DNA from: Octopus sinensis
Lineage: Eukaryota
Direction: 5' to 3'
Length of the DNA: 64,000 nucleotides
Assembly (NCBI RefSeq): GCF_006345805.1
Contig: NW_021835996.1
Location: 62,001 to 126,000 of the forward strand
Position 1 is the stretch's first letter, and every line of letters starts with the position of its first letter. The position numbers were made by a program, and so were the translations under genes. The notes under the pieces were generated by a model. The model ran no database searches. It saw only the letters and a list, made by a program, of their open reading frames with translations, and was not told where the DNA came from. Below are positions 1,286-57,399 of the stretch, piece after piece.

Positions 1286-2720
1286 ATGGATTTTCGAAGT
1301 GGTTATTTGAGAGGAATAAGCAAATATAAAAATACCATCGTAGAACCTAAATGGGATTATGGTACAGCCGGTTATCGGGGATGCGCCGATACATTGAAAC
1401 TACTTTTTTTCAAAGTTGGATTGTTTGCCTCTGTTCGGTCTATCTCTCTTAAATCAAATATCCGCTTAATGATTACAGCATTCCACAACCCTCCAGAAGA
1501 TAATGGAATAAAAATAGTAGACCCAGGTGGAGGAATGATGGTTCAAGAAGATGAAGAATTTTGTAATGAATTTGTTAACTCGAATGACCAACAATTATTA
1601 TCATCACTGCTTGATATACTAAAAACGAAAAATAAAACAAAAACTAATATTATAATCGGATACGACAGCCGAGGCTCCTCTCTTGAACCTTTATTATGTT
1701 TAATGGATGGAATTGATCTTTTTGTTGATTATATCGTTCCCATCAATATTGGACTCACCACAACTCCATGTCTGTATTTTTCCGTGTTTTATAACAACGA
1801 AAAATGTTGGAATCCTGAAAATTCAATCGAAATTTATTTAACTCGGCTTATCGGAGGCTATAAAAAAGCTACAGATCTTATAAATAAAGACTTTTTCAAA
1901 TCTTCCATCCTTATGTGCCAATGGAGTTGCTTCCGTCGTTCTCAGTGAAAGTTCCATAAAATCCACAATTTTTGATTATAAATTGAATAATGCAGCAATT
2001 AATGACAATCATTTACTCAACTGATTATGTAAAAACAAAAAAATGTAAACCAGTCGGTTTTGATGAACTAAAATTTGAAAAGTGCATATCTTTTGACGGG
2101 GATGCAGATAGGATAATCTATTTTTACCAAAATGCTAAAAATGGTTTCACTATTTTAGACGGAGATCGGATTCTGTGTCTTTTTGTTAAATTTTTTAAAC
2201 ATCTCATCACAATCTGTCATCTTAAAGTGAATAAATGAATAATGTTTCAGGACATTTTTCTTAAAGCAGTACAAACAGCTTAAGCCAATGGAGCCTCGTC
2301 TAAATACATCAGGAATGTTTTGGATGTTGATGTGTTATTTGTACCCACTGGAGTCAAGCATCTTGTTAAAAAAGCAAAAGAATTGAATCTTGGTGTCTAT
2401 TTTGAAGCAAACGGGCATGGGTCTGTTTATTTTTCTGAAAAATTGTGCAGAACATTAGAAAGTAATGTTGATTCTAGTTCTGTGGTGATAAAATTTAGTT
2501 TTGTTATTTTAATTTAGAAAGAAAAAATATGGGCGGCAAAATTTTTATTGGCTTCAAATGAAATAATAAATCCTGCAATAGGCGATGCCATTTCTGCCAT
2601 GTTATTAGTCGAAGTAATATAGTGTTATTATCAATGGAGTCTGGATGACTGGACTTGCCAATATCAGGAATTTCCATTAGTATAATTCATAAATAATTAC
2701 TTAAAGCTGAAAGAGTAAAC
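1286..2720 (+). pseudogene. PGM3: phosphoacetylglucosamine mutase (PGM3/AGM1) pseudogene
   Basis: Motifs YGTAGYR, SFDGDADR, TGVKHL, GVYFEANGHG and GDAIS. The catalytic ITASHNP reads ITAFHNP, VQTAYANG contains TAA (2281-2283), a later TAG is in frame, and there is a frameshift at the CANG motif. Short introns are retained. Confidence 0.85.
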
Positions 2721-2793: not shown

Positions 2794-2865
2794 GGCTCGG
2801 TGGTCTAGTGGTATGATTCTCTCTTAGGGTGGGAGAGGTCCCGGGTTCAATTCCCGGCCGAGCCC
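2794..2865 (+). tRNA. trnP-AGG: tRNA-Pro (anticodon AGG)
   Basis: 72 nt GGCTCGG...CCGAGCCC cloverleaf with anticodon loop TTAGGGT and T-loop GGTTCAATTCC, very close to the eukaryotic tRNA-Pro consensus. Confidence 0.97.
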
Positions 2866-4883: not shown

Positions 4884-5273
4884 TCACGTAGACTGTCTCT
4901 TCATGAGTTGATAGGTCTGTTGTTTAATCCAGTTTTTGTTATGTGGGGAATAAACACCAGTCGAGCAGTCAAAACTATCCAATTATTAAAATGATCACAG
5001 ACACAAGACACGAAATTCGAGTGAAGGAGTCAATAAATTGGAAGAGGTCTTGCAAAGAATATTCCATTGATGTCGAGGTTGTGTCTTTGGCCTTTAAATG
5101 TTCCTCAAAAATTCGACAAATGTCTTTGTTTTTATAATAATTTGGAATACTTTCGAGACATTTGTTCTCATTTTCAAACTCAGAGAATATTCTAGTCTCT
5201 ATATTTCTGGTCGTTTGCAGTAGGAGTATGGTATGATTTTGTGCCTATTTATTATTTATAAAAATTACACCAT
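4884..5273 (-). CDS. ERH: enhancer of rudimentary homolog (4 exons; not in ORF track)
   Basis: Removing introns 5245-5270, 5124-5150 and 4975-5002 gives MAQNHTILLLQTTRNIETRIFSEFENENKCLENICRIFEEHLK...LFQFIDSFTRISCLVFDCSTGVYSPHNKNWIKQQTYQLMKRQST*, which is colinear with ERH. Confidence 0.93.
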
Positions 5274-11148: not shown

Positions 11149-12766
11149 ATGCGATACTTTTTACGTGTTGTTTTGCACGCCAGAAAATTTTCAAATTATG
11201 TATTTCCCAACTGCGAACAATCCATCCCTGATCCACATTTGGATTTTGATTACATTTTTAACCAAGAAAACTTTGAAGAGATTCGTACAAATATTAAAAA
11301 CAGAAAATCTTCTGGGGACATAAAAGCTATTGTATGCATTCCATTTGTACTTCTCTAGCACGATATCCTCAATAAGACACATCCCAATGAGCACCAAAAA
11401 GTAATTTAATTTTAATTATTTGTAGCTTATTAAAAACCCACGATTCCTCCGTCTGTGTAAAAAACTACCAAATTTTACTCATCCCGAAACAGTAAGTGAG
11501 TCCTAATCACGAAAGCCCATCGGTGATGAATCTATGGGTGAGCAGGTCACTCTGAAAGGGAAAAGGCCTGGTTGATATAAAAAAATCATATTTTTAGAAT
11601 TTAACTTCCCCCCACGTTCGGCTTCCATAATTTGTGCATTTCTGGGGCAGTTGAGGACACAGTGCTAATTCACACGATAAGTACTGTTTAGAAACACGGG
11701 AATGATCACTGGACCTCGCTCGTACTATCTGATTGGCCAGCTAGCTGAGTTGGAGGAGGCTCTGCTCGAATATGCGCTGGATGTGGTTCAAAAAAAAGTT
11801 GATTGTTCTAAAATGTATTTTTAGGGATTCAAGTTGATTTCAGTGCCAGAAATATTGAATGATGGAGTTATTGTATAGTTTTAATAACATTTTGTAGGAG
11901 TGTTGTGGTGTGGTGAATGACAGTGACCGGTCTTTGGTTTATCGTCTCGACTCAGAACATTATGGACATCACAGTCTCTCGGGGACTTCTGAACTTGCTC
12001 TGGCAGGACTGAACATGAATAATACTTTCGATGAATCAGAATTGCCAAAAAAGTCTGTTTTCAATCATTTTCATGTAATCTTTTAGACTGACGGCTTGTT
12101 CTCGCTGCTACAGAGCAGAGGTAAGCAACGTGGAGGATGAGAAGGGACTATACCGTGTCCATCAGTTCAATAAGGTCGAAATGTTTGGAGTCACTACGAG
12201 AGAAAAAAGTGACTCTTTTCTCAAAGAGATACTATCAATACAACAAGAAATATATGATAGTCTCGGACTGCATTATCGGTTGTTGGTTTATATTATTTCA
12301 GTGTAATTAACATGCCTTCGGAGGAATTGGGGGCTTCCGCTTACTGTAAATACGACATTGAGGCGTGGATTCCTTCCAGTAAATCATTTGGAGAAGTTTG
12401 TTTTCATATTCTAGGAATTTTAGATATCGAGTTGTTCAGATTGTTCGGATTACCAATCAAGGAGGCTGATAATTCGATACAAGGCCGAGAATGGCGATCT
12501 TTCATATGCTCACACAGTAAATGTGCTTATTTAGTCCTGTTGAGGTGAATGGAACTGCGGTGGCACTACCTCGATTGCTTATTCCACTTTTAGAGACACA
12601 CCAGACTAGTGTTAGTGTGTGTTGATGATTTGTGCAGAGGTACTGTGTTGATATTCCACAAGTACTACATCCCTACATGTCGAATGGGACTAAAAGACTT
12701 TGTGAACTTGATAAAATTGTGATGCACTTTAACAAGGCCCTTCCAAAGATTGATTCGGATTTTTGA
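11149..12766 (+). CDS. SARS2: mitochondrial seryl-tRNA synthetase, about 12 exons
   Basis: Spliced product contains [65 protein letters not shown] and [12 protein letters not shown], with a basic N-terminal presequence. Confidence 0.95.
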
Positions 12767-13199
12767 TGAATTTGTTTACTTGTTTTTTAGATGCTATAGA
12801 TTTGTATTAAAGTCTGTTTTAGAAATGTTATTTATGATATAAATTATTTGATGGTAATTTAGTAATAGGGTGGTTTCTGTGTAAAAAAAGTGGTAGTACC
12901 GGTAAAACGTGGAGACCCTAGTCCCTTAGCTTTCCTTGTTCTAACCACAGAATTTTTGAGATCGAAAGAGAACTAGAAAGTCAATTATTTAAATTAATTA
13001 TGAAGTAAGAAGTTTCTTGGTTACTCTTGTCGTGTAGTTTCTTTTAATTATAGTGCACCCCAATACACGTTAGTTTTTGTGCGAATTGAATTATCAATTT
13101 ATTCGATAAAAAAGATTTAAAATTAGAAAGAAAAATCATTTGTGGGTAGTAAAGAGTGCCTGTCTGTTCCCGCTGAGGATGGCAATCGAAATTCTTAAA

Positions 13200-15501: not shown

Positions 15502-17069
15502 ATGCAACAATCTGACATCTGGTTGCTCAAGATATTTAATATTTGCGGTGGCAATGAACACGATTTCGTAGACAAAACCGCACTTGTAAACAAGCTGTCA
15601 TCAATTCACATTGTGGATGATAAAAACACCCATGTCAGACTTATTCAAACGACCTTTAGATTATGGACCAATTTATCAAATCGATTCTCAACACAAATAA
15701 TGACAAAAATCAAATTAATTTTGTTGAATTTAAAGAGTGCTATTCTCCTCTCATCTCGTGGACAGAGGATTCTAAGCCATTTAATAATGTAATGAATTTG
15801 TTTTCATGAAATTAAAACTTTATTGTTTTTCATATATTCTAGAATTTATCAAAAAATCCAAAATGCACTCAATTTAACCCGAATTCATTTCCTGAAGAGC
15901 GGTAATAAATTTGTGCGTAAAAGCCCTCAGGTACACCAATTCTGATGACGTGGATTTCGATCCCCTCAAGTAAAAAATTTATTTACAATCTCTAGTTCTT
16001 TGTATGGGGAGTATGATTATATGACCGAGGTCAAGCAATAGTTTATTCAGTTCTAGATTCAGAAAATAAAAAACAAAGTATCTGCAGTAGAGGACTCCAT
16101 TTCCAACAACAGTACTCTAAGTCTGAGGTGATGTTCTTGCTATAAACTAAGACTCTCAATGGTGGAAAAACAATTGGAAGAATTAGTGGTGTCCAATACT
16201 TGTCCAGATTCAGAATTTGATGGAATGGAGTTTCGAGCCTCAATCCAAGACATATATTCAAAGTCGGATATTATTATAAAATTAGACTCAACAAAAGAGA
16301 GCAGGATTATGAGCACTTTGAAAAACAATTTTCGGAATTTAATTTCAAAAAAATCCTACAAGTTTATTTTTATGTCTCAAAATCAGGAAACAGCCCGACT
16401 TTCGGAAAATCTCTGCAACATCCATTCTCAGTTTTCTTCTTTAAAAGACGAGCATGTTCTATTGCTTAGCAACCACCGGAATTTACTTCACGAATTGGAA
16501 GCAGAAAAGCGTAAAAACGAAAAGGTTCTAATTGAGTTTGTCTAGTAGGAATTAGATTTCATCAGAACTAAAAGAAGTCCTCAAATCCTCGGCTTACGTC
16601 AATACTGAACGGAGAAAGGATCTTGAAATGATAGGTAGAATCCTTGAATTGGAGTCCCCTTCAGTCAATGACATTTTGGGCAATATTACTTGCATTAAGA
16701 AGGTATTGACTAAAATAAAATTTTAGGAAAATGAAATTCAAAAGTCGCAGCTTGAAAGCTTGTATTTTTATTTTAAAGATTCTGATTTATCGAAACGGGT
16801 TATCCATGATAGTGACGACGTTTGTTAGTTTCACAATTTTGTTTAGATAACAGTAAAATTTGAGGATTTGTTGGAAGATAAGAATAAACAGAGGTTATAT
16901 ATTGAGAAGCTCGTTTCACGTGTGTTGCTATATAATCCAGAATTACTTGAAAAAGAGGATTAGTTTTGTTATATTGATACATATTATATATCAAATATTA
17001 CTTGTTTTTACTAAAATTAAGAGCTGTGTGAAATTATGCTTTAAAATGATAATAAAAAACAATTTTTAG
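15502..17069 (+). CDS. EF-hand-like N-terminus + coiled coil + hydrophobic C-terminus (KASH5/LRMP-like architecture)
   Basis: LLKIFNICGGNEHDFVDKTALVNKL...QINFVEFKEC, heptad-rich central exons and tiny introns. The 3' end is uncertain. Confidence 0.45.
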
Positions 17070-17374: not shown

Positions 17375-20300
17375 TCACATATTATTAAAAATCACATCTT
17401 CCACCAAGTTACCTCCAATAAGTTTTAAATCTTCTCCAAACAATGTTATATCGGGCTTAAGCATCACAGAAATGCCATCTGATCCAATAACTGGCTGTCT
17501 ATATTCGACTTGATTGACCTAAAAATATAACAAAAATTAAACCGAGAAAGGTATATCCGTCAAAAAACTTGGCCTGAGCATAACACCAACTTTATAGCCT
17601 CCATATACATCGTAGAAAAAAAGCGCATGTTCTGAAAACCGTTTCTAAGATAAATTTAACAAATTAAAACAGCGAGGCAATCAACATATTTACGTAAAGG
17701 ATCATAATCTAACACTGGAATTGGTAAAATCTGGCGTTTCGAATCTTCGATGGTCTTTGAAGAAATGTGATGAAGAGAATAGACGACTTTTCGTCGTAGT
17801 ATTATTAAAATGTCAAACATTTTATCATTCTGACTGAATATAAACTGCATAGTGAAACGATAAAATAATAACTTTGGATATTTCTCCTGAAGAATTTGAC
17901 AAAATTTCAAAAGCCTTCTTAGAAATTTGCACAAGTCGTGTAACAACGACTTTAGAGGGTCCCTTAAACGTACACATAGAGTTAAATTTATCCATCGGCG
18001 TGGCAATAAACATTGCAGGAAGTTCAGAGCGATTGCTGTTAAACCTATTAATAATTTCATCTCTTTCTTCGTCTAAGTAATAGAGTTGGTTCAAAATAAC
18101 CCGATAAAACAGAATGTGGATCAAATATTAATGGTTTTGAATTCCAGTCAAAGGAACTCACAAATCGTAAAAATCGTATGAAAATAACACGCGGGGACCT
18201 AAAAATACACAAAATTCTCAACATTGGAGTCGTAAAAGGCGCACTCTCTATACATAAATGATTTACGATGATCTCAATGACTATTTCAGGGATATGGACA
18301 ATTAAAAGTAATTGTGCGGCAACCCATCTTTTGACCAGCCTGACTCCACCAGAATAGGAACGACTAGCTTGTTGATGTAAACTAAAATAATAAATTGGAT
18401 TATATACTTTGTAAAAAATGAGTTAATTTGAGGAAAAACGTTATAATCATAATTAAATTCGTTCATTTCTTGCTTATTCTTAAACCGAAGAGATTTCAGC
18501 TCACTATGAGAAGTAAGTTGAAGCCTCCATGGGATAGAACACTGAAAAAATTATAAATATAAATCTAACATGGATGATGTCCACTCTATCAGAATATCCA
18601 ACTGCCTGGATGGATTCGGTTTTTCTCAGCAGCGCAGCTATTCTCAGGTAAAATGAAGCTTTCAAATGTCGAACAGCATCCAAATCATTAGGCCATTTGG
18701 TACTTGACTCAAGTATTCCCAGAACTACAAAACTATAACTAAGACCACTTTCTATCGGCTTTATATAAGACGAAAGAAGAGATGAGCCTTGTTGTGGAAT
18801 GCAGTGGCCGCGCAATACCTTCCCCGTTACTTCATTACTAATTGGATTCACTGGAAAAACCTAAAAAGGTCCAATCAATTAGAAAACCTCAGCATGACGT
18901 AGAGTAGGAGACATGGATTGTATTTTTACAATAGGTAAAGGTAGAAATGAAAATGACAAAAGTAAATTAGACAATTGAGTGAAGTACTTGTTGACTTCAG
19001 CGTACCTTTCGTCCACAGAAAAAGATAGCTCCCTTATTTTAGACTTAAAGTTCTTCCTATTGTATTCGTTAAATCCAAAAAGAATTTGTTGTTCAGTCAG
19101 TTCGATTACATTGATATTTTTTTCAGTTCCTTCAAAATGCCTAAATATAAATAGCAACATTACAAATCAAGAATATATTTGATTATAGATTTTATTATTC
19201 CACGTTTTTCGTCAAAATTTTTTGCCGGCCAAATAACTGATTCGCATACAATTCCATCCGGAAACCTCCTTAAAAGACAGCTGTTGCCCCAAAATTCTCG
19301 GAATGAATTAACCTATAAAGAACATACAAATATGGGATAATTACAAGTTCTTTGTCTTTAGATTCCAATCTATCGACATCTCTATAGCAATGTTTTCCAT
19401 TTAACAAAACTCCAACATTAATAACATCTAGAAAAGCACTTTTTGGCGGAGGCGAGTCAATTGACCACTGAAATAACTCAGGACATATAAACATTTAAAA
19501 CAGAAGAGCAGCACAAGTATAGGAGCGTAATGCGATTATCAAGTGCTCTGCTAAGGACCTTTTCAATATGTTCAATAGACGAATAATAACTACATCGACC
19601 ACAGTCCTCGTATTTATCTGTTGATTGACTATTCTGGAGGCAGTTAGAAATCCTAGCTTATCACAGGTGACATACAAACTGAAATTGGAGGTCAAATTTC
19701 TCGTAGAATCGAATTGGAGTCATAAACAAAAGTTCATAACTGTCATTCTCTCGTTCTAAAATTTTCAAACTCAGTCGTGCTTCGTGAACGAGCTATAAAT
19801 AGATATACGATTATTACCAGTTGATAATGACTAACGGATACGAGACAAAATATTCATAAAACCAGATGGGTCAACAAATACGAGATCAGAATGCTCACGA
19901 AAGTCTTGCAATTTCGGCAAATTTTCATTTCCTTGGTTATAACATAGAGAAATGGGATTCTTTATAAGACAATGTTGATCTGAAAGTTAATTACATTACT
20001 TTCGAACCAAAATAAACGAATATATTTCGTAGAATCTGTATAATATCCATAGAATTAGAAATTATGCCATTTTTGAGAAAATAAGCAAAAAACATGGTAA
20101 AAATAAATCCCGAAAACTGACCAGAATTCTATGAACAGTATAATTAACAAAATAGAAACTGTCTGATCGAGTTCTCGCTGTCTAGCCCAAACTTTCAGTA
20201 AAATAAGTGCGTCGGCAATATTCCCGTTTATCAGATCTGTAAGAAATTCGTTGATCTCCATCATTAGAACATCCGAAAGACATGAGTGATTATAAAATGG

Positions 20301-21273: not shown

Positions 21274-22590
21274 TTAAAATACATCTCTGGAAGAAGTCCG
21301 CCTTTTAAATATTTTTTTCTTTTTTAAAAAGGAACACTGTTCCAAAGCCGAAGAAGGCTCTTTTTCTTTTTTAACATCTTTAGACGTGTTATCGTTGTCT
21401 ATTTTGATTGAATCTTTGTCTTCCATTTGGTCCTCTTTGTACTGCTTCATCATTTCAAGAACATTGACATTTTCCGAGTTTATTGTCTTTCCCTGTTGGA
21501 TAAATGTCATAAAATTTATTTAAAATATAAACCGTAATCCAATAGGAATTTGAAATTTCATTTGCTGAGAGACGTAAAGCGGGATTTACTTCTAACATTC
21601 CCTGAATACACTTCCTTCCTTAAAATTCGTTTATCTTGTACAACCAGACACTGACATTCCACTAAAGCGAGTTGATTCGTAGTCGATTTCTCCATTTTTT
21701 ATTAGTTTGTATAACTGTTGTTGAGATTTAAAGCTGTAGGGTTGCTGACCTTCAACTCTAAAATTGAATATCCTAACAACTAACAGACAGTAAGCTATGA
21801 TTCCCATGGCCCAAACATCGCAGAGTGTACTGTACGATTGCTTTCTCACTATTTCTGGAGCTGGAAGATTGATAAAATAATAATAAAACCCATGTAAACC
21901 GGAGTCCCGCAGAAATCGTGTAGCATGTGATCAGCCGTAACTCCTCCAATTTTTATGGCCAGACCGAAATCACTAATCTGAAATATATTAGAATTATATT
22001 ATACTTTAATTCTAAATGTATATTCATGGTCAATTATATCTTGAATTAAAATATTTTCAAGTTTAATATCTCGATGAACAATGTCTAATAATATAGATTA
22101 CTAGTTTTACCCATTTTGTGAAGATAGGTTAAAGCACATGCTAATTGTTTAATTACATCCCGAATTTCGCGTTCTTCTAAATTATTCTTTTTCTTTAGCA
22201 TTTGCGCTAGCTGTCCTTTCTCACATAATTCCATTACCAAAAAAACTTGCTAATCAAATAAATGTATTTTATTGTAAAACCTGCCTAGTTTCATACACTT
22301 CATAAAGTTTAATTAAGTTTGGGTGATTGATTATTTTCAAAATTTCTATTTCATGCTCGAGTAAACACACTCCCCGACTGCCGGCCTGATGATATAAGAA
22401 ATGCATTTACTTTTTCTTTGTTAACAATTTTGATCGCAATGTCTGTTTGTGTTTTCTGGCTGAATGCCTTGTAGACAGTTCCAAATGTCCCTTTTCCGAT
22501 AGTTTGATCAAACACAAATAAAATATTTAAGGCTGAATTGCTGTCGACGCGTTTGTGAATTATTCTCTCCTCAAGTTGATTTCCATCCAT
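21274..22590 (-). CDS. STK33: serine/threonine kinase 33-like
   Basis: IGKGTFGTV, AIKIVNKEK|AGSRGVCLLEHEIEILK, VHRDIKLENIL, SDFGLA, CGTPVYM, CDVWAMG. The NKEKAGS signature is typical of STK33. Confidence 0.88.
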
Positions 22591-23217: not shown

Positions 23218-25360
23218 CAGGCCTGGCCAACCCAAATCGCATCGCGGGCCACTTTGTCCAAATGAATCCTTTCCGCGGGCCGCATATACATGTACATACT
23301 AAGGATAGATATCAAAACAACACAGATAAGATTTTATTTAGTAAAATAGCATTCAGTCCAATTATACGTATCAATGAGAAATCTGTTTTTCTTTATCTTC
23401 ACTTAATTTTTTCAAATCAACTTCACAATTACTAGTTGCACATCTTAATTGGTTTTCTAAGTTTTTATCTGTTAAAGAAGATCTATATCTACTTTTACTA
23501 AACTTTAATTTCGAAAAGAATGATTCACATACGTAAGTAGATCCAAAGGAGCTTACAACTCTTTGTGCAAAAATTCTTAAGTTGGGATATTTTTCTGCAG
23601 TCACATATTTGTTATAAAAGTCAATTTTGGATATAGTAGGATAAACAAGTCTTAGTTCACTGTTGCACTGTAGGTCAATTATTTCCGTCTGCAAAGTATT
23701 TGAAACAATAGAAACGTCAACATGAAATGGAGAAGAAAATGTTTCAAACATTTTCTCATATTTTTTTAGTTCCGAGAATCGACTGTCAAATGCTGCAGCA
23801 AGATTTTTTATTTCATCAGCGTACTTGAAGAAATTTTTACAATGGCTGATTTTAAATTGATTTAGCGTTGGAAAATGTTGATCATTTCCATTTCTTATTT
23901 GACATTCAAACAATGACAATTTCATTCGAAATGCTTTGACTTGATGGCATGCATTAGTAATCAAATTATCCTGTCCTTGTAACTCCTTGTTTAATTGATT
24001 AATTTTTTCGGTTATATCTACCAAAAAGCACAGATCTAGCATCCATTCTTCATCATTTAATTCAGTTAATGTCATTTTCTTATGCATCATAAAACTTTTG
24101 ATTTCTTCTCTCAAGTCGAAAAAACGTTTTAAACATTTTCCGCGACTCAGCCATCTGACATTGGAAAAATACACAAGATCACCATAGTGAGAATATAACT
24201 CGTTCAATAATTCTTTAAACTGGCGATGTTGAAGTGCATGAGAACGAATGAAGTTTATAGTTCTTACAACCACACTCATAACATGGTTCATAGACAACAC
24301 TTGCGCGCACAAATTGTGTTGATGTATCAAGCAGTGTATTACAAATAAATCATTTTTTATGCTTCTTGACTCCATCTCATCCATTATTAGCTTTACAACT
24401 CCTTTATTTCTTCCAATCATAGCCGGCGCCCCATCTGTTGTCAATCCAGCAAGGGTCTCTAAATTCGCTCCATTGTCGGATAAACATTTCATAACAGCTT
24501 GGAAAATATCTTCGCCCTTTGTAGTATCTTTCAAACTGACAAGGTTAAGCATTTCTTGTTTCACTTGAAAAGATTCGGTAACTCCACGAATATATACTAC
24601 AAGTTGAGACGTGTCTGATATATCCGTGCATTCGTCAAAGGCCAAAGAATAACTTTTGAAATATTTTATTTGATCACGCAAAGTCACCACAATTTCATTT
24701 GAAATGTCATTAACCCTGCGACATATGGTTTGACGTGACAAGCTAATGTTTGAAAACTTTTTAGTTTTATCTGGCAAAATGTCTTTCACGACAGCATCCA
24801 AACACTCTTTTACGAATTCTCCATCCGAAAATGATTTCATTCTCTTTGAAATTATCATTGCAACAGAGTAGCTTGCTTTAACAGTATCAGAAGAAGAGTG
24901 TATCGATGAATTTAATAGTCTTTGCTGATTTCTCAATTCAGATTTAAGCGAATCCAGTTTCCTTGTTTTCAATTCCTTACTAAATTTCGCGTATTCGGAA
25001 TGCTTTGTTTCATAATGTCTTCTTACATTGTACTCTTTCACCACCGATACTTTCTCCTTGCAAATTAAACATGTTGGCTTGGAATTATGCATTATAAAAA
25101 AGTAATCTTCTTCCCAATGATTGCTGAATTGCCTGTTTTCTTCAAAAATTTTCCTTTTCTTCATATTGATAACAGCTACAAAAATAGATAAACTTTAAAA
25201 TTTATTAAACTTATAAAATTTATCTTTATTTATTAAACTTAAGAAAAATTTATCTTGAATGTATTTATAGGTTAACTACATACAAAATTTCTCTCGCGGG
25301 CCGCACCAAACTCCATCGCGGGCCGCATGCGGCCCGCGGGCCTTGGGTTGGCCAGCCCTG
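23218..25360 (-). mobile_element. complete autonomous hAT (Buster/SPIN-type) DNA transposon
   Basis: 18-bp TIRs CAGG(C/G)CTGGCCAACCCAA with one mismatch, perfect 8-bp TSD CTATAAGA (23210-23217 and 25361-25368) and GCGGGCC subterminal repeats. Confidence 0.97.
23371..25164 (-). CDS. hAT transposase, 597 aa, intact and intronless
   Basis: BED-like CLIC...RRHYETKH, LAFDECTD, TTDGAPAM, HCLIH, VRWLSRG, FGSTYVCESFFS and terminal QISH. Confidence 0.96.
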   Translation of the reverse strand: MKKRKIFEENRQFSNHWEEDYFFIMHNSKPTCLICKEKVSVVKEYNVRRHYETKHSEYAKFSKELKTRKLDSLKSELRNQQRLLNSSIHSSSDTVKASYSVAMIISKRMKSFSDGEFVKECLDAVVKDILPDKTKKFSNISLSRQTICRRVNDISNEIVVTLRDQIKYFKSYSLAFDECTDISDTSQLVVYIRGVTESFQVKQEMLNLVSLKDTTKGEDIFQAVMKCLSDNGANLETLAGLTTDGAPAMIGRNKGVVKLIMDEMESRSIKNDLFVIHCLIHQHNLCAQVLSMNHVMSVVVRTINFIRSHALQHRQFKELLNELYSHYGDLVYFSNVRWLSRGKCLKRFFDLREEIKSFMMHKKMTLTELNDEEWMLDLCFLVDITEKINQLNKELQGQDNLITNACHQVKAFRMKLSLFECQIRNGNDQHFPTLNQFKISHCKNFFKYADEIKNLAAAFDSRFSELKKYEKMFETFSSPFHVDVSIVSNTLQTEIIDLQCNSELRLVYPTISKIDFYNKYVTAEKYPNLRIFAQRVVSSFGSTYVCESFFSKLKFSKSRYRSSLTDKNLENQLRCATSNCEVDLKKLSEDKEKQISH

Positions 25361-25603: not shown

Positions 25604-28600
25604 TTTTTTTAATGTTAATGTATTTTTTTAACAAAAGGAAGAAAATATAGGTTAATTAAGGTTGTTTAAGAGCAGAAAGGATAGCGTGGCTATTACCCCT
25701 GACAACGGTTGTTGAAAGGCGTTGAAACAGCCATTCGGTCTCCCTTCTATCTTTCGTCCGAACCGAGATCAGGGATCCAAGTTTCCTAATGAAAGCGATT
25801 GATTCCGGACCAAAGACTCCGGATGACTCCACAATGATCGGTTGCACTATGAACCTGTCCTTGAGCTCTGAATATTTTAATTTTTTAATTTTTTCGTAGT
25901 TCTGTGAAGCATATCCTGGAGAGGAGGCTGAGGCGATCAGGTTTGTCTCTGAGAAGGTGTCGGTGCAGGCGCAGTCCCAAACAAGGCACTTCCCGTTGGT
26001 GTACGGGAAAATTGTTATCCCATCAGGCCTTTTTCCGTCTGTGCGGATGAGACCAGGAGGCTCCAGCTGTGCCGGGAAACCAGCTGCATGCAAAGCGTTC
26101 TTGACAATTAGGTTCATTGTATGATGTCTTGGAAACCGGCCTGCACTGCGTCTGCATGAGAGAGCATGCCGTCCGAATTCGTCAACGGAAGCCCCGCAAC
26201 TACAGCGGTGCTGGCGGCAGATCTTCATGCAAAGGCGTAAGGAGATTGCAATTCGCAATGTCTCGTCGTCCAGTTTGTTTCCGACTGAAGGGATAGGACA
26301 TGCATTGAGCCACGCTCCGGATTGTTTTTGTGAAGCGCTTCTAAGGCATGCAAGACGAGATTGATCAGAGACCTCTTCCAAGTGGTGGTAAATTGACATA
26401 GAAGACAGGTCGTCCCAACATCTCTGTGAGAATGAGTTAGCAGGTATCTTGAGGCCTTTGTTCGACCAAATTTCGATTGCCATCTGATACCAGGAGGATG
26501 CGTTACGTTCAGTGGAAAGGGGGAGAACAGCATCCACCAGTGAGTCACACGACAATCGAGAAGAGAGGAAAGCGGGTAATGCAATATCTGCTGGGGAGCG
26601 GAGACCAATGCCTCCGAATCGTATTGGAAGCGTGGCTTGGGTCCACGAGGCTTCGTCAAAACGAATGTTGCAGAGATTTTCGGCACTGTGTTTCAGCCCT
26701 GATTCCAGTTCTTTGAGAAGTTCAGGGTTTATAAAGCAGGGGGCAGAGCGGAGAACGTGTTGTAGCTTGGGGAGTGATATGAAGTTTTTCAACAAGAAAA
26801 ACCCTTCGTGAGCGTCCAGGATGGATAGCCTGCTTGACATAAACTCAAAAGTGGATAATTTTCCGGACAGTATTTTCTCGATTCCTTCCGGGAAAATGGG
26901 AGATCCTAAGACTTCAAGCGACCCTTTCCTGGTTATAATGCCACCCGGTAAGACTGCGTGATATTTTTCCACTATAGTCGCGAAATCTTCCTCGTTGGCG
27001 TTGAGGTTTATAATCTCACATTTTGAAGGGTTCAACTGTAATCCAATTTTCTTCAGACTTACAGCGATTGATTCGATATCCAAGATGACTTGGTGAGCAG
27101 GACCACCAATAGTAATGTCATCCAGATACCAAACGTTGAGCGGTGATTTTACGGCGTGTGCTGTTGGGTTAACACCCATGGAGAAGAGTAATGGACCAAG
27201 GGGGTCACCTTGTTGGACCCCAGAGGAGGACAAGATCGTGTGTCCGTCTATCATTAGTTCAGGTGTGCAACCGTAGCACATGCTGGCCATCGGGAGTAAT
27301 GGAATGTTATGTTTGCTGCATTCTTTAAGGAAGCATGAGCGGTCGATGCAATTAAAAGCATTTTTCATGTCCAATTTAGCAAGAATACAGTCGTTATAAG
27401 CAGAGTGTGAAAACTCTGTAAAATCCCTCACGGCGTGGACAGTGGCTTCGCAGCCACTTTTAACACCGACACCCATCTGTATGTTATGGAAAATTTTCGG
27501 AATCAGATGTAAAGACCTGGCGCAAGCGATCTTAGCCGCCAGTCTCCTGAAAACATTACCGACGGATATGGGACGGATTCCACCGTCCTTTTTATTCAGC
27601 GCGGTCAGGTTACCGGAGAGAAAAAGTGAGCGTGGGAAATCAGACAGAGACCCTTCGAGGAATGCGTTCATTAGACCACAAATATCCGTCAAAAGACGTT
27701 CTCCGGCTGCGGAAGCTGAAGAGGAGACCAGATCCATGATATGACTTGGACGGAGGCCATCGATTCCGCCGCTGCTACTAGGGCGAAACGACTTCAGGGC
27801 TCTCAACACTTCGTCTTTATCGACATGCACAAAGTCATGATCCGGGCTTGGTGTTGGTACTGTTGTAGGAGAAGATGGGGTGGGATGTTTTGCTAGGAGG
27901 GACTGTATTGTTTGTTCGTCAACCCTCGCAACTTTATCGTCTGAGGAAATTATTCTCAAGGCGGCCGAGAAGTCGCCTGACATTAACTTGGAACGTACTC
28001 TCTTGCGTAGGTTTTCGTTGTGGTTTAGTCTTGGTTTTGACAGTGAGTGGCTTTCCTGAGATATTAATGTGTCGATGGAAAAGGGGAGGTAAGAAGAAAT
28101 AGATCTTTTAAGTTTGGAAGTAAAATTCCCAGGCAATTTATCTCCACGGGTCAGGCCAAGTCCGAAAAAGTGGAAGCAGAACGCTTTTGCCCAATCCTCG
28201 TCCCTGTTTGAGGTCATAGCTCTGGATATCAGAAGAGACAAGGCCTCCGCAGCTGCTGGACGAGCTGGTTTCGGTAAACGGATAGGGATGCTTCTCGAAT
28301 GACGATATCTTGATAGATAAGATAGTATTGCGTTCGATGAAGTTAGTATATTGGGAGATTGATCATGGGAACTATCAAACAATGTGGGTGTGTCGTGGAA
28401 TGAGGCAGCTGCCAGGCAAGAGTTACAGTGCCATATTGGGATGCTGGAAGCGGATTTCTTCGAAATCTTGAGACATCCAATATGGAAGTAAGCATGGCAG
28501 TTGGCGCAGTAAATGCCGTTTTTGCGGCAGTTAATTTTACTGCATTTACCACATGGTAATGGATCGTGGAAAAGAAATGACATGTAAAAATAGGAAAGAA

Positions 28601-28705
28601 GTATTAAGAAAGATAACAGAAATACCGACGAAAGTATTAAATTATACAAAAAATATGAAAAATAACAGATAAATGAAAAATGTACACCACAACACCACGA
28701 ACGTG
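25604..28705 (-). mobile_element. full-length CRE-clade non-LTR retrotransposon
   Basis: Single ORF, short 3' poly(A) (T-run at 25601-25610) and 11-bp TSD ATTTTGTATTT at 25593-25603 and 28706-28716. Confidence 0.92.
25656..28583 (-). CDS. PHD finger + reverse transcriptase + CCHC + restriction-like endonuclease polyprotein
   Basis: C4-H-C3 PHD, KKDGGIRPI, LDMKNAFN, GVQQGDPLGPLLF, YLDD, CSCG...HALSC, RH and KRPDG...WD. The first ATG is at 28583; the ORF track starts at an upstream TTG. Confidence 0.93.
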   Translation of the reverse strand: MSFLFHDPLPCGKCSKINCRKNGIYCANCHAYFHIGCLKISKKSASSIPIWHCNSCLAAASFHDTPTLFDSSHDQSPNILTSSNAILSYLSRYRHSRSIPIRLPKPARPAAAEALSLLISRAMTSNRDEDWAKAFCFHFFGLGLTRGDKLPGNFTSKLKRSISSYLPFSIDTLISQESHSLSKPRLNHNENLRKRVRSKLMSGDFSAALRIISSDDKVARVDEQTIQSLLAKHPTPSSPTTVPTPSPDHDFVHVDKDEVLRALKSFRPSSSGGIDGLRPSHIMDLVSSSASAAGERLLTDICGLMNAFLEGSLSDFPRSLFLSGNLTALNKKDGGIRPISVGNVFRRLAAKIACARSLHLIPKIFHNIQMGVGVKSGCEATVHAVRDFTEFSHSAYNDCILAKLDMKNAFNCIDRSCFLKECSKHNIPLLPMASMCYGCTPELMIDGHTILSSSGVQQGDPLGPLLFSMGVNPTAHAVKSPLNVWYLDDITIGGPAHQVILDIESIAVSLKKIGLQLNPSKCEIINLNANEEDFATIVEKYHAVLPGGIITRKGSLEVLGSPIFPEGIEKILSGKLSTFEFMSSRLSILDAHEGFFLLKNFISLPKLQHVLRSAPCFINPELLKELESGLKHSAENLCNIRFDEASWTQATLPIRFGGIGLRSPADIALPAFLSSRLSCDSLVDAVLPLSTERNASSWYQMAIEIWSNKGLKIPANSFSQRCWDDLSSMSIYHHLEEVSDQSRLACLRSASQKQSGAWLNACPIPSVGNKLDDETLRIAISLRLCMKICRQHRCSCGASVDEFGRHALSCRRSAGRFPRHHTMNLIVKNALHAAGFPAQLEPPGLIRTDGKRPDGITIFPYTNGKCLVWDCACTDTFSETNLIASASSPGYASQNYEKIKKLKYSELKDRFIVQPIIVESSGVFGPESIAFIRKLGSLISVRTKDRRETEWLFQRLSTTVVRGNSHAILSALKQP

Positions 28706-28929
28706 ATTTTGTATTTATAATAAAAATAGATTTAAATTTTAATATTGAAACAAATTTAAAGCATGTCCGGAATTAGGCTAGTGACATTAAAATTGTTATA
28801 AAATTTGAACCGTAAAATTATGCTAATAATTTGAACCGTAAAATTACCTTTTTACTCTCGATTTGTAAAATGAAAATTTTTCGTTTTTTTTCGTTAGTAT
28901 TTAGAGTTTGATCTTAATAAACAAATATT

Positions 28930-34103: not shown

Positions 34104-35078
34104 ATGGTGATTGCTGGTGTTAATATTCATATAGGGTGTAAGAGGTATTAAAAGACATCTGAAACGAGTAAATGCTCCAAAGAAATGGATGCTGAGCAAG
34201 ATGGGCGGTGTCTTTGTATGACTGAATGTCTACTAATGTATAAATAGGCACCAAAGCCCACATCAGGTCCCCACAAGCAACGTGAATGTATCCCAATGGC
34301 TCTGGTCCTTCGAGAATATTTCAAATTTGCTTTGAATTACCAAGAAACCAAAAAAATCGCTAAACGTAGAGTAGTGAAAATCGACAACAAAATTCGAACT
34401 GACCACCGATATCCGATTGGTCTGATGGGTGGGTATTCTTTAGTTTATTCTTAGATGTGATCTCTTTCGGAAAACTAAACAAGCACTACAGAATGCTTTA
34501 TGACGCCAAAGGACGATTTAAACCCACTCCTATTGGAGAAACTGAGGCCGAGGTTAAATCTATAGAGTTGTATTTGATAGGTCAAACTGTGTAAAGTTCG
34601 AAGAACCATAATCGGTCCTCAGAAGATTCCTTATCTATACACCTATGATGGAAGGACTATCAGATTCCCCAACCCTGCAGTAAAGGCTAATGACACGATA
34701 ATGCTCCATTTGGCTACGGGAGAGATTAAAGACTTTATAAGCATGGACAAGGGTTTGTTTCGTATGATTATTTGTAAGGCAACTTGTGTATTATTACTGG
34801 AGGGCGTAATTTGGGGCGAGTAGGGGTGGTCAATAAGATTGAGAAACACCCTGGTGTGTATGATATTGTTTATGTTGAGGATTCCTCACATAACAAGTTT
34901 TGTACTCGGTAAGAATTGTCGGTTTTATATAAGAATGCAAAATGTGTTTATTATTGGGAGGGGGAATTCTCCGTGGATCACGCTAAGTATTGATAATGGT
35001 GTCAGACTTACTACAATGGCTGATCGTGAGAGGAGACTCAAAATGTCTGCAAAAGCAAAGGGAATAGAATTGGCCTAA
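34104..35078 (+). CDS. RPS4: 40S ribosomal protein S4 (eS4), 7 exons
   Basis: Introns 34107-34134, 34216-34247, 34429-34454, 34553-34580, 34753-34778 and 34909-34933 (28, 32, 26, 28, 26 and 25 nt) give [21 protein letters not shown]...GPHK...KLCKV...DGRTIR...GGRNLGRVG...EKHPG. Confidence 0.97.
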
Positions 35079-40962: not shown

Positions 40963-43900
40963 TCATCTCATCAGTAAAATTTCCCCTGAATCAGATGCAA
41001 CTAAAATAAGTTGACTCCGAGGAAGAAAAGTAAAACATTTGATATTCCCCTTAAATAAATTGACAGGCAATTCCATCGGCTGATAGTAACTCTAGAGAAA
41101 TCAAAGTTTAATCGTACTTTTTTGCCAGTGAACGACCCGTACCACCCAAGACGATGATTGGCCGACAGAGTGACCAAATCATTATTGTGGACTTCAATCT
41201 GAGATATCACATCCTGATGACCTCACAAATATACCAAAGTGTCAAACCACTGAGAATAAAATCTGATTTGACGTGGTCTTGGTAAACATTCAAACCAATA
41301 AGAGACTTGTCAGAACCAGAAGCCATCAACAATGAAGTATAGCAAGCATTGACCTTCCTTATTTCAAAAGGAGTGTGATATGTTTCCATAATCCTCCCAG
41401 AACGAATATCCGTGATGTACAAAAGTCCCGCAGATGAAGCAACAGCAACCCAATTATCAGATGGATCCACCGACACACTATTCACAGAACCAGAACTAAA
41501 ACGGTCGACAAGTCGGAAAAACAACGAGGGACTCTTTGCTCGAATGTCATACAAACTAGCACATAAAGGAAACATGAAACCCAATGTTAAGTCGACTGGT
41601 TGCCAATAGTATAGTAGACGAGGGAGAATGCAGGGGACAAATATCGGCAATGTCAAACATGGGATCATAAACCCGCACAACTCTCCCCTGAGAGTAATCC
41701 AGTGTCTGAAAAAGTAATTTCACATAAAAACGTGAAGACTTCCATCACAGGAAACGGCCTGCTCGGAGTTCTCGATCATCCCAAGTCCCCAGACTGGTCT
41801 CCGATGCATAGAATACGTCCACAGAGGTCTTCATGCTTATTTAATAATAGGTACCCCGATTTTTTACTATCCAAAATAGACCACATCCTGACTGTCTTGT
41901 CACGGGAAACACTTAAAAATCGATTTTCAGAACCAAGTGCTTGCATTTTGACAACGCTTGAGGAATGTCCCAAAAACGATTGAAGTCTGATTTGTTTCAA
42001 GTCAAAGAAGTAATCAAATCTTCCAAGACCGAGTTGATACATCCAATACGCCAGCCACTGCTCGTTCATTCGCTTTTTGATAATAATCCCGCCACTAAAA
42101 AATATTTTTGTTCCTTATTCTAGACTTGGCCACTTTGAGATCCTTCAACATCCTCGAGTTCCTGGAAAGTCTTTCCTTAACCAAGTCTTGGTTTGTGTTG
42201 TATGCTCCTACCAAATCACCAACTTTCTGGCTAAATTGGGTCGCTTGTTGCTTTGGAAATATTTGCTCGGTTAGAAAACGCCTATTCTGGTTACCAACAG
42301 CCCAACCTTCCAAAAATCCACATTAAGAGCAAATAACAGTCCAGCGCAAAGTCATCCGAATACACAAATTCACGCTGTTTCATGATAGACTCATCCTCAA
42401 TCACTATAAGTCAAAATTCCGAAAAGAACAATAATTGTTGAATGGTTCGAGAAGATGACATATGACTGATGACAGTTTATCTCTGCAGTGATACACACCC
42501 AGTCTCATTCCAAGGACAGAAATCACGTCCATTAGTTTATAGGCAACCAAAAGCCGTGTCTCACCACCACTTGAGAAAACGTGCTTTGAAGAAGACACCA
42601 ACATCAACACCGGGAGTACCATTTTCTGTATTATCATATCCTATATACTCAAAAAACAAGAAAATAGAACATCCAAATATTCGAATAATTTTTTTTCTGA
42701 CAGGGTGGACACACATGACTTCAACAGAACCAAAGAGCCAATAAGGGCTGCTTCCTTTTTCTCGTTAAGAACATATGAAGTGGCAATAATTGAGTTCTAA
42801 TATCAGCATAAAAAGATCACCATAGCTTTAACGTACTCAAAGTACTGTGCGGTAATAAATTCGTCTCCATAGGTGTTGGCCGCCTCCATCAAACACCTGA
42901 CTACTGGCTGGGAGTACACGTCCCCTTCCACAACACAAAACGAAAGGTAATCATGATGGAATACGTCTAAATCAAATCATAAGTGAATAAAACAGTTTAT
43001 TGACGCTGAATTGTACATCTTTCTGTACTCTGACAGGTAGTAGGACAATTCCATAACTCCCAGCAGTTTCCTGGTCACCGAGACAGCAGTCATGACTGGG
43101 CCGATTTCTTTAAACAACCAATAAATATTTTGTTCGCAAATCTCAGACAATTGTGACTTGTGTATGGAGGCACGAGGAATGTCGAATGGAGAATTGTTAG
43201 ACAAATTCATTCTCTCTTCGTCCATCACAGGAAATCCAGCCAAAGTATGTATAAATATCTCCGTAAATAATGCAAGGAAGGCCTCATCCCCCAACCTTCT
43301 CCGGACAATCGCCAAAAAATGTTGTGAATATAACTTTAGAAAAGTTTGATCAGGATTGTCAATTGTATATAGTCTCCGTAGAAGCGGGACAATGTCAACT
43401 GCAATTTGACGGGAAGATAAATGTCGAGTTATCCCATCAAAACAAAAAGGCATCAATTTTAAAGCAAGAAAACGGTTGTGGAGCAACGACTTAATAATTG
43501 AAAGGGAAACGGATATTTCCAGGTTATTCAACTTTGGAAGAACCCCGCCACAAAACTCGTGGACATCTACAACAATGTTGGAGATCAAGTCGTGGCTGGT
43601 ATTCAGGAGACTTGTAAAGTCAAGACTGTCTTCTCTCAGGAGCCTTGAACACAAATTCCACTCAAGTTTATTCAGATTGGCGGCGAAAGAGTAAATATCG
43701 TTGAAATGAGAGGGAAAATGGACATGTGGAGAAAGTACGTTAGTGTAGTATGGACTATCGAATAAAATGGATAGCAAGTTGACCATCGCCCTAATTTTTA
43801 TCAAAACGATGAAACATTGGGGCCTTGTGGCGATTGTCTTTGTAATGATGTCGTGCAATGTCATACCGAGAATTTAGATCACCAGAATTTGGGAAGAAAC

Positions 43901-45680
43901 TGAGTTCATCGAAAAAAATGATTTCAGCTATCAGGCAGCTCATGACCATCCAATTATGACTCGGCTTGACTTTCTTCTCGTTCATATCGTTGTCAAACGT
44001 GTCGAATACTTGCCTCACTGCACTGCCGTAAAACTGGCCCGTTTTTTCAATGTGTTCAATAAGACCATCAAAGCAGTCAAATGAATATAAGGGAAAAGAC
44101 GATATGCAACGAGAAGGGTGTTCTCGGCCAAAAAGTTTTACAGTATTGTGAGAATACAAGTCCAATGACTCACAAGCAAATGCTAAACTCACGTTCTTTG
44201 CTTCCAGAGCAGCCTCCCCAGTTAACTGCAAGTATTGGTTAGTCTTAATACTTTATAGCCAAAGGTGATATCAATCCAATGGTGGAGATTCCGAGATACT
44301 TGGTCACTTTCCAGGACTTGCCGATGACAGTCAATGAAATGTTGAGGCGAGCGAGCCCAACTGGGAAGTCGGAGATCCTCCAAATCGTCATGAATAGAAG
44401 AAAACATTAAGGGATCAGTAAAAAACTCAGGAATACATTCGTCGGGAGACCAGGAATAGAGACGAGACAGTGAGTTAGGATATTCCTTGGGCACCCACCG
44501 CTGTCTGAGAATACAGGACACGTGATACCTCACAATGGAGCATAGGATAGACTTGGGAGTCCTCCTGGCCATATACATATAGTATGTAACGTCTGATAGC
44601 ATTCCAGCAATGTGATGAGGCTTATGTTTATTCACAGAAAATTCATTTTCGTATACAGTTTCGAAAAATCCATTAAAAGTGACATCCAACTGGTCGTCTC
44701 CCTTGCATAATCTGTACTTTGATTTGGTCAGATCCCGCAAATTCCCATCCTCTGTTTCAAAGTCAGAGACCCACGGAAATATTGGATGGACACGGGCAGA
44801 TTCCATTTTCCTTCCAGCCATCGAGTTTAGAAACATCAAGTAATCGTAGTTTGACATTTTACCACACTGCCAGTCCTTCACGGCGGAATAAAAATCTTTT
44901 TTGGCCAAAAAGCCCTCATTGAAGTCTTTAATCGGAGAACCCAGATCTCCTTCATCCACGAATTGCGGACTCTCCGCAAAAAAGGGTGGAAATGTAAGCC
45001 AAAACGAGTCACTGACGTGAATATCGGAACAAGAAAGCGCAGGTAGTTCAAGTCCATTTTTACGTAAAGTCGAATTTAGGTTAAAAAGTTGGTAAATAAA
45101 ATAGCTCAGCAAAATTCCGCCATTTTTACGGAATTCCGTGGGACAGAATGCAAAAATATCCTTCAGACTTGGATTTCCACGGAGTTCTACAAAAACGTCA
45201 AATCCGTCGACCGTGAATTCAAAAATAGAGGGAATTAAACTGCCGGGTAAATACCCTCGACATTGCTGAGCGTACAAAGCGAGACTGTTCCTCTAATTTT
45301 AATAAACGTGTCCTCAACTGGTGTTGTGGGTTGGGAAGACTTTCTTTTGAGTGTTTTCTCCCAACCAAAGTGTTTGGAAATGTGAGGACAACTGTCGAGG
45401 ACTTTTTGCATGTCCCTCTGCTGGCTTTCCAAAACTCGTGTCCTCAGCAATTCACTCACGGAAATAGAGTCAGTTGTTGAAGAAACACGACTTTTTAATT
45501 GAGTACAAATTCGTACTTTTCGGATTTTTGAGGTTGAGTTTTAAGGAGAAATGCTCTCAATTTTATCGTTTTATCTCCAATGATAGATTCACGGGAATAT
45601 CCGAATTCTTGTAATATTTCTGTTAAAAATTGCATGTCGAACTTTTCGTTGTTTAAGCCTTTTCTTACATTTTCCGTCAT
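40963..45680 (-). CDS. WDR81: WD repeat and BEACH domain protein 81
   Basis: SNYDYLMFLNSMAGR, HPIFPWVSDF, RDLTKSKYRLCKGDDQLD, WSPDECIPEFF, LHHWIDITFGYKLTG, WLAYW and WD40 repeats (FLSVSRDKTVRMWS). Confidence 0.93.
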
Positions 45681-56862: not shown

Positions 56863-57399
56863 TTACTTTCTGGCCATCATTAGAGAGAGGAACTCTGAGA
56901 GACCAAAGTTAAAAATGTCAACCTTCAAGGTCGAGCAAGCCGTTGTCATCGGCGTCAATTTCTCTAATCATTCTCAACGCATTTTCGTAAGTAAAATTTT
57001 TGTCAAATTTAAGCATCGCCTTTGCGAGGTCGTCCGCGGAAATGACTCCGTCGTTTGATTTGTCAAAAAATTGGAATGCTTCGAGATAAGATTCCTCAAG
57101 ACTTTTTGGGACGAATTTAGTAGACATTATTTCCACAAATTCAGTGAAATTAAAATTGTTTTTACCTTATGATCTAAACAGCAATATAACCATGAAAGTT
57201 TTGTTTAATGATAAATTCCGTAAATTCTTCTTCAGAAAATATGTGTCCAAGTGCACGGATTGTATGTTTAAGTTCATTTTTGGTGATTGTGCCTTCGCAG
57301 TCCTTGTCAAAAAGGGAGAACGCCTCCTTATAATCTAACGACTATTTTGTATGTCAAACTTAACAAATCCTCTTCTGATAGTTTAGTTTTGTTACCCAT
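56863..57399 (-). CDS. calmodulin-like EF-hand protein, 4 exons
   Basis: YKEAFSLFDKDCEGTITKNELKHTIRALG...EAFQFFDKSNDGVISADDL...MIREIDADDNGLLDLEEFLSLMMARK* after removing three 25-28 nt introns. Confidence 0.9.

Follow-up and report, generated by a model that had tools for sequence, protein, structure and literature searches.

A putative donor-anchored branch-point adenosine and distance-dominated acceptor choice in introns of 23 to 40 nt

The shortest animal introns, described in 2026 (PMC13644364), have median lengths of 22-27 nt in myxobolids and 24 nt in Dicyema japonicum, and PMC6543705 gives a median of 27 nt for Dicyema sp. The ultra-short introns of dicyemids and myxozoans carry GTa and AG motifs and a weak stretch of 2-3 As, whose distance from the AG grows with intron length (PMC13644364). 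The same paper reports U2 and U2AF to be conserved in myxozoans, and it leaves the mechanism of recognition and splicing open. Dicyemids have no branch signature according to PMC2483917, and length optima and low-GC effects are described for Paramecium in PMC12862383 and PMC8997360.

The window analysed here is the whole DNA stretch of 64 kb, in which we curated 84 GT-AG introns belonging to ten genes: 12 in a seryl-tRNA synthetase gene (SARS2-like), 6 in RPS4, 8 in STK33, 3 in a calmodulin-like gene, 3 in ERH, 19 in NOL6, 16 in WDR81, 14 in WDR63, 2 in ABCG and 1 in a ZnF gene. Their lengths range from 23 to 40 nt, mostly from 23 to 32 nt, with a median of 26 nt; 71 of the 84 are shorter than 30 nt, and none was called below 23 nt. 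Lengths in the twenties and motifs reduced to little more than GT and AG are shared with D. japonicum and the myxobolids. In contrast to the clear "GTa" of dicyemid and myxobolid introns, the base at donor position +3 is T in 44/84 introns and A in 28/84. Only G at donor position +5 (enriched, 23/84) and a pyrimidine at acceptor position -3 (71/84) stand out in the splice motifs, and the donors comprise 61 different hexamers. The degeneracy of donors beyond GT that the original prediction had claimed was borne out for GTGCTA, GTCTGT and GTTGAT, which occur in the curated set, while its further example GTCAGA occurs only in the unverified intron 15634-15659. AAG acceptors, said there to be common, were indeed found in RPS4 (twice), ERH, SARS2 and the ZnF gene; the -3 base at the used acceptors is T in 51, C in 20, A in 10 (AAG) and G in 3 (GAG) of the 84 introns, which departs from the intron composition (P = 2.5e-6). 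As to the weak A stretch of Dicyema and the myxobolids, the A peak of the present introns is stronger overall when anchored to the 5' end, and the two anchorings tie in introns of at least 29 nt. The text of PMC13644364 contains no analysis of skipped AGs, no donor-anchored position and no selection rule. The number of curated introns with a length divisible by three is 23 of 84 versus 28 expected, and several introns are stop-free and hidden in long ORFs (21758-21784, 18199-18222, 44505-44528 and 5124-5150).

Only GT-AG or GC-AG intron ends were allowed in the curation. The boundaries of 60 of the 84 introns, which are those outside SARS2, RPS4, the calmodulin-like gene and ERH, were set by reading frame and presumed homology; 7 of the 84 are ambiguous, and the results were alike when these were omitted. 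The curation was not length-blind, and it was completed before the A signal described below was tested. In the homology-checked genes, removal of the GT...AG segments restores the conserved protein, as is expected of U2-type introns. The orthologue names SARS2, WDR81 and ABCG are labels that we presume for matches to SerRS, BEACH-WD40 and ABC2, respectively. Left outside the 84 were genes without clear homology at about 8.6-10.9, 14.5-17.0, 36.5-37.2, 39.9-40.5, 46-47, 50.6-52.8 and 58-64 kb, PGM3, and a few ABCG and WDR63 junctions adjoining apparent indels. Length-blind gene parsers, tried as independent callers, were too weak (26/38 exact in six segments), and introns shorter than 23 nt proposed by such a parser were rejected on homology. 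Protein searches for spliced proteins of the organism itself returned none: the RPS4 query retrieved one plant protein (P0001), the NOL6 query had no match, and the SerRS matches were of at most 66% identity. A metagenome scan gave one locus (35%), which was left unused. By eye, single-base breaks of the reading frame that no intron explains, many of them in homopolymer runs, were seen at about 19834 (NOL6), 320 and 783 (ABCG), 42310 (WDR81) and 48910, 48650 and 47870 (WDR63); these breaks are probably consensus errors in the assembly.

The SARS2-like gene and several of the introns in which a proximal AG is skipped, together with the exon between the two SARS2 introns cited in the original prediction, are as follows.

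11149..12768, plus strand: seryl-tRNA synthetase gene (SARS2-like), with 12 introns of 23-34 nt
12396..12423, plus strand: SARS2 intron of 28 nt; AGs end at nt 19 (CTAG, skipped) and nt 28
12424..12516, plus strand: SARS2 exon between these two introns; the encoded peptide ends in ...AHT
12517..12544, plus strand: SARS2 intron of 28 nt; AGs at nt 18 (TTTAG, skipped) and nt 28 (GAG)
34429..34454, plus strand: RPS4 intron of 26 nt; AGs at nt 15 (TTTAG, skipped) and nt 26; As at +14 and +19
57166..57190, minus strand: calmodulin-like intron of 25 nt; AGs at nt 17 (TTTAG, skipped) and nt 25 (AAG)
57335..57359, minus strand: first intron of the calmodulin-like gene, 25 nt; ATAG at nt 18 skipped

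To these may be added the SARS2 intron 11662-11691, which skips an AAG at nt 20. In the boundary test, every stop-free, frame-compatible GT-AG or GC-AG alternative within 40 nt was scored, for SARS2 against a SerRS HMM made from 75 of 150 SerRS proteins, those of 330-570 aa, and for RPS4 against the single plant protein P0001. The results showed that the chosen boundaries scored best for all 12 SARS2 introns. For the intron at 12517, the GAG acceptor gave 507.1 bits versus 495.7 bits for the sole option using the proximal AG, a GC-AG intron of 10 nt. The chosen boundaries were best for 5 of the 6 RPS4 introns, the miss being the intron at 34429, for which an 11-nt alternative scored higher against P0001 (303.9 vs 298.8). 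P0001 carries a 13-residue insertion of its own exactly at this intron site, which is likely a mis-called splice site in the plant annotation, and in solved eS4 chains residues 28-87 and 88-119 align, with no gap between them, with the RPS4 exons flanking the intron. The calmodulin exons are contiguous across a split Gly codon, and the ERH exons correspond to positions 1-29 and 31-69 of the profile. Frame and homology agree that the four introns on which the original prediction was built (two in SARS2, one in RPS4 and one in the calmodulin-like gene) are real, as are their skipped AGs. Use of the proximal AG would give a stop in 12396-12423 and a frameshift in each of the introns at 12517, 34429 and 57190. 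Within 12517-12550, Val-Asn is encoded at the intron start and again at the start of the next exon, and a second GT at +7 of this intron would yield an in-frame 22-nt intron duplicating VN, which scored 7 bits lower.

Over the whole set, taking the first AG that ends at nt 21 or later finds the acceptor in 82 of the 84 introns, and the count is the same with a threshold of 22 or 23; the first YAG is the acceptor in 71/84. When the acceptor was chosen by leave-one-out among the AGs located 8-50 nt from the donor, threshold plus order recovered 82/84 and a sequence-only matrix 62/84, chance being 49%. Distance and sequence combined also gave 82/84, with a better likelihood (-7.8 vs -10.1). At nt 21 or beyond, 2 of 425 positions were the end of a non-terminal AG, and at nt 7-20 the figure was 27 of 1176 (Fisher P = 0.017); the 2 AGs in the former region compare with 7.1 expected under a dinucleotide-preserving null (P = 0.009). 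Such a depletion of AGs between the putative branch point and the acceptor is what a scanning model expects; taken alone, it is fitted about equally well by a threshold set from the 5' end and by an exclusion zone at the 3' end (lnL gain 3.76 vs 3.25). An enrichment of skipped AGs at nt 14-20 was considered and rejected (18/588 vs 9/588 at nt 7-13, P = 0.12).

The original prediction that 3' splice sites are chosen by distance agrees with these counts as far as position is concerned; its addition that sequence strength plays no part goes too far. A YAG is present at 71/84 used sites versus 10 of the 27 skipped AGs at nt 7-20 (P = 5e-6). Where an AG ends at nt 23, it was used in 4/4 cases when it was YAG (these are all the 23-nt introns) and skipped in 2/2 cases when it was RAG. 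The intron 49287-49311 takes an AAG though a CAG sits 4 nt downstream. Weak acceptors are found in 13/66 of the introns of 24-28 nt and in 0/18 elsewhere, a difference that is only suggestive (P = 0.06). Moreover, 11,987 nt of exon contain 228 spans of 21-32 nt running from a GT to the first AG, whereas those segments hold 69 real introns, so the ruler cannot alone define introns; these decoys, none of which was called as an intron, differ from introns in GC content (0.41 vs 0.23) and in T content. A second GT at a permissible distance exists for 23/84 acceptors. We concluded that distance dominates acceptor choice and that sequence still contributes to it.

An adenosine is present at intron position +18 in 39/84 introns and at +17 or +18 in 62/84. 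In 5000 shuffles, no 2-nt window anchored to the 5' end reached this count (null maximum 50.0), and the 62/84 at +17/+18 was likewise unmatched in 1000 dinucleotide shuffles. For single positions, the A peak had P = 0.011 when anchored to the 5' end and P = 0.47 when anchored to the 3' end. All 11 introns of at most 24 nt have an A at +17/+18 (expected 4.5, P = 5e-5). An A is found between +17 and L-5 in 83/84 introns (null 69.5), and from +19 on there is no excess (53 vs 55.9). The signal was observed in the four tool-checked genes (18/24 vs 12.0, P = 0.009), remained when WDR63 was left out (51/70), and is present on both strands; nine parser-called introns outside the curated set, unverified and too few to carry weight, have it in 6/9. 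The remaining 22 of the 84 introns have no A at +17/+18. Homopolymer error was considered as the cause of the split between +17 and +18 and rejected (P = 0.53). The original prediction had named a strong branch-point motif downstream of the skipped AGs as a competing explanation; over the 84 introns, the best-site score for a U2-pairing branch motif was 3.69 versus 3.60 +/- 0.08 for shuffles (P = 0.105), which does not exceed chance, and a strong motif of this kind was rejected. The U2 pairing pattern behind this score is an assumed one.

The adenosine at +17/+18 is likely the branch point. It is present in 10 of the 12 SARS2 introns, and in both of those listed above it is the A of the skipped AG itself. 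In 12396-12423, the predicted branch A is that of the skipped CTAG (12413), at intron position +18. In 12517-12544, the A of the skipped TTTAG (12533, position +17) is the sole A between +14 and +26, so 12533 is the only candidate branch A in this interval. Similarly, in 57335-57359 no A other than that of the skipped ATAG (+17) lies between +17 and L-5, and in 57166-57190 the A of the skipped TTTAG is at +16 and the next A at +18.

The mechanism that we propose from these alignments, and that we regard as having a somewhat better than even chance of being correct, is that a branch A anchored to the donor about 17-18 nt into the intron is selected and that the acceptor is then the first AG to follow it by about 5 nt or more. 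A minimum donor-to-branch spacing would fix the branch A at about 17-18 nt from the donor; an AG overlapping the branch A or lying within about 4 nt of it would be unusable in step 2; and the next AG after this exclusion zone, at least about 5 nt past the branch A, would be taken. The YAG preference might settle close calls between AGs and, together with U-richness, might mark which GT-AG pairs are introns. The use of the first AG past about nt 21 as acceptor would then likely follow from the branch A sitting 17-18 nt from the donor. The interval measured is more likely that from donor to branch A than that from donor to AG, which is where we depart from the distance ruler first predicted, and the 3' step would in that case be the usual choice of the first AG beyond the branch point. 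Three introns bear on this choice of interval.

19653..19679, minus strand: NOL6 intron of 27 nt; departs from the plain ruler by skipping an AAG at nt 23
42641..42670, minus strand: WDR81 intron of 30 nt; departs from the plain ruler by skipping a GAG at nt 23
56895..56922, minus strand: last intron of the calmodulin-like gene, 28 nt; breaks the branch-first rule

A pure donor-to-AG ruler would skip no AG beyond its minimum, yet 2/84 introns do so, in both cases at nt 23; the boundary of the NOL6 intron was set by frame and presumed homology, a PDB search having given no match, and that of the WDR81 intron by reading frame. Neither exception has an A at +17/+18. The first A in the relevant part of 19653-19679 is at +19, and 42641-42670 has no A from +7 to +21, its first A (+22) being that of the skipped GAG. 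A rule that takes the first A from +16/+17 onward and then the first AG no less than 5 nt beyond it recovers the acceptor in 83/84 introns; it predicts both of these exceptions and creates one new miss, 56895-56922, which has no A from +15 to +26 and As at +13/+14. This rule was fitted on a post-hoc grid, and the step from 82 to 83 of the 84 is not significant.

The best surviving alternative, which we consider unlikely, is a direct donor-to-acceptor ruler that takes the first AG once a minimum of about 21-23 nt is passed and assigns no set position to the branch point. It attains its 82/84 with one parameter (a preferred-length model also gives 82/84), and the shortest intron, of 23 nt, is in keeping with it. 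The same ruler misses 19653-19679 and 42641-42670, where AGs at nt 23 are skipped despite the existence of four 23-nt introns, and it leaves unexplained the excess of A at +17/+18, including that in the 11 shortest introns.

Still less probable, in our judgement, is that splicing is defined from the 3' side by U2AF bound to a U-rich YAG, with a branch A 8-10 nt upstream, and that the donor anchoring is only apparent and follows from the small spread of lengths. The frequency of YAG speaks for it, and so does the best acceptor-anchored 2-nt window, A at -8/-9 in 55/84 introns, a weak enrichment (P about 0.04); in introns of at least 29 nt this window ties with that at +17/+18, each having 9/14. 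Supplement S12 of PMC13644364 also shows U2AF1 and U2AF2 to be kept in myxozoans. Against this, the sequence-only model recovers no more than the 62/84 given above, the skipped AG outscores the used AG in 8 of 21 cases with the sequence matrix, an AG precedes the acceptor by 4-7 nt in 7 introns, the A peak is stronger in its 5'-anchored form, and the published A stretch recedes from the AG as length increases (PMC13644364). Sloppy splicing, in which proximal AGs would be appreciably used, their products lost to nonsense-mediated decay and the pattern produced by functional-isoform annotation and selection, is very improbable: use of the 21 skipped AGs at nt 13 or later would indeed give a frameshift in 15, a stop in 3 and an in-frame product in 3 (18/21 damaging the frame or stopping), and 479/512 alternative 3' events of Paramecium bursaria shift the frame according to PMC12862383, but no intron below 23 nt was called (the shorter proposals of the parser having been rejected on homology) and AGs are depleted only beyond nt 20 in comparison with nt 14-20, as expected if only those beyond nt 20 compete.

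The proposed order of events, a donor-anchored branch A followed by the first AG, resembles the scanning from branch point to AG of Smith 1989/1993 (in PMC1431707). In that model, the AG that comes first downstream of the branch point is taken, AGs too close to it are bypassed and the -3 base matters among neighbouring AGs; the mammalian bypass zone given there is below 12-15 nt versus about 5 nt proposed here, and the branch position of the present introns appears tied to the donor instead of to a motif with a pyrimidine tract. The human spliceosome likewise has a steric lower limit on donor-branch spacing, about 50-52 nt (Smu1/RED; PMC6692369), against the 17-18 nt suggested here; the human limit is a floor, whereas the A in our introns would cluster at the floor. 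The 15-16 nt introns of Stentor coeruleus are similar in that they lack a branch motif and have a putative branch A at a fixed place (PMC9505925). Their A occupies position 10 when the intron has 15 nt and position 11 when it has 16 nt, and so is constant from the 3' end, whereas in the present introns, of 23-40 nt, the A is better aligned to the donor. For Trichomonas, Giardia and Yarrowia, PMC2483917 describes acceptors set by the spacing from the branch site, as proposed here, with strong branch motifs and 3' anchoring, neither of which was seen in our set.

Tiny introns, weak motifs, an A stretch and the bypass of AGs near the branch point are already published. What appears to be new is a rule stated explicitly from the donor, together with the finding that skipped AGs overlap the putative branch A; a literature search, with subscription papers outside its scope, found neither a donor-anchored branch rule for ultra-short introns nor such an overlap. 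A donor-anchored A followed by the first AG is a concrete rule that predicts 82-83 of the 84 acceptors here, and it would improve the annotation of dicyemid and myxozoan genomes. It also points to the spliceosome parts that would necessarily be shrunk, the U2 and U6 helices having to fit within 17-18 nt. We put forward more tentatively, as an idea that has less than an even chance, a remodelled spliceosome whose donor-bound complex sets a motif-less branch point 17-18 nt downstream and which evolved separately in unrelated lineages with tiny introns. If such a donor-to-branch molecular ruler exists, its 17-18 nt would be a third of the approximately 52 nt of the human B complex, and it would have different settings in unrelated tiny-intron lineages.

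The gene content gives a clue to the host of these introns. The window contains axonemal WDR63/DNAI3, STK33 and ECSIT, and the WDR63/DNAI3 product matches 9fqr and 8j07 (E about 1e-23) much better than it does IC140 of 8glv (1e-5). These three genes suggest a ciliated animal; to our knowledge, myxozoans are without cilia. Combined with introns in the twenties, the gene content suggests a dicyemid-like ciliated animal, and the host of these genes is probably a parasitic animal. The GC content is about 0.30-0.40 in most bins of the window.

Several other features of the window were noted. The WDR63/DNAI3 gene (47178-50078, minus strand) has several frameshifts, an in-frame TAA near 47450 and two apparent deletions relative to the human protein, and the locus is either of poor consensus or a decaying gene. 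In a PGM3-like gene (1286-2720, plus strand), the first 650 nt are intronless, unlike the intron-dense neighbours, and frameshifts occur near 1925, 2020 and 2235; it is possibly a decayed retrocopy. No snRNA genes were found within the 64-kb window, the only Rfam hit being a tRNA gene (2794-2865, plus strand) located directly after the PGM3-like gene. By eye, the long intronless ORFs at 23374-25194 and 25659-28772 on the minus strand resemble a DNA transposase and a non-LTR retrotransposon; ORFs of mobile elements are common in the window, and many further fragments of them lie in the intergenic stretches.
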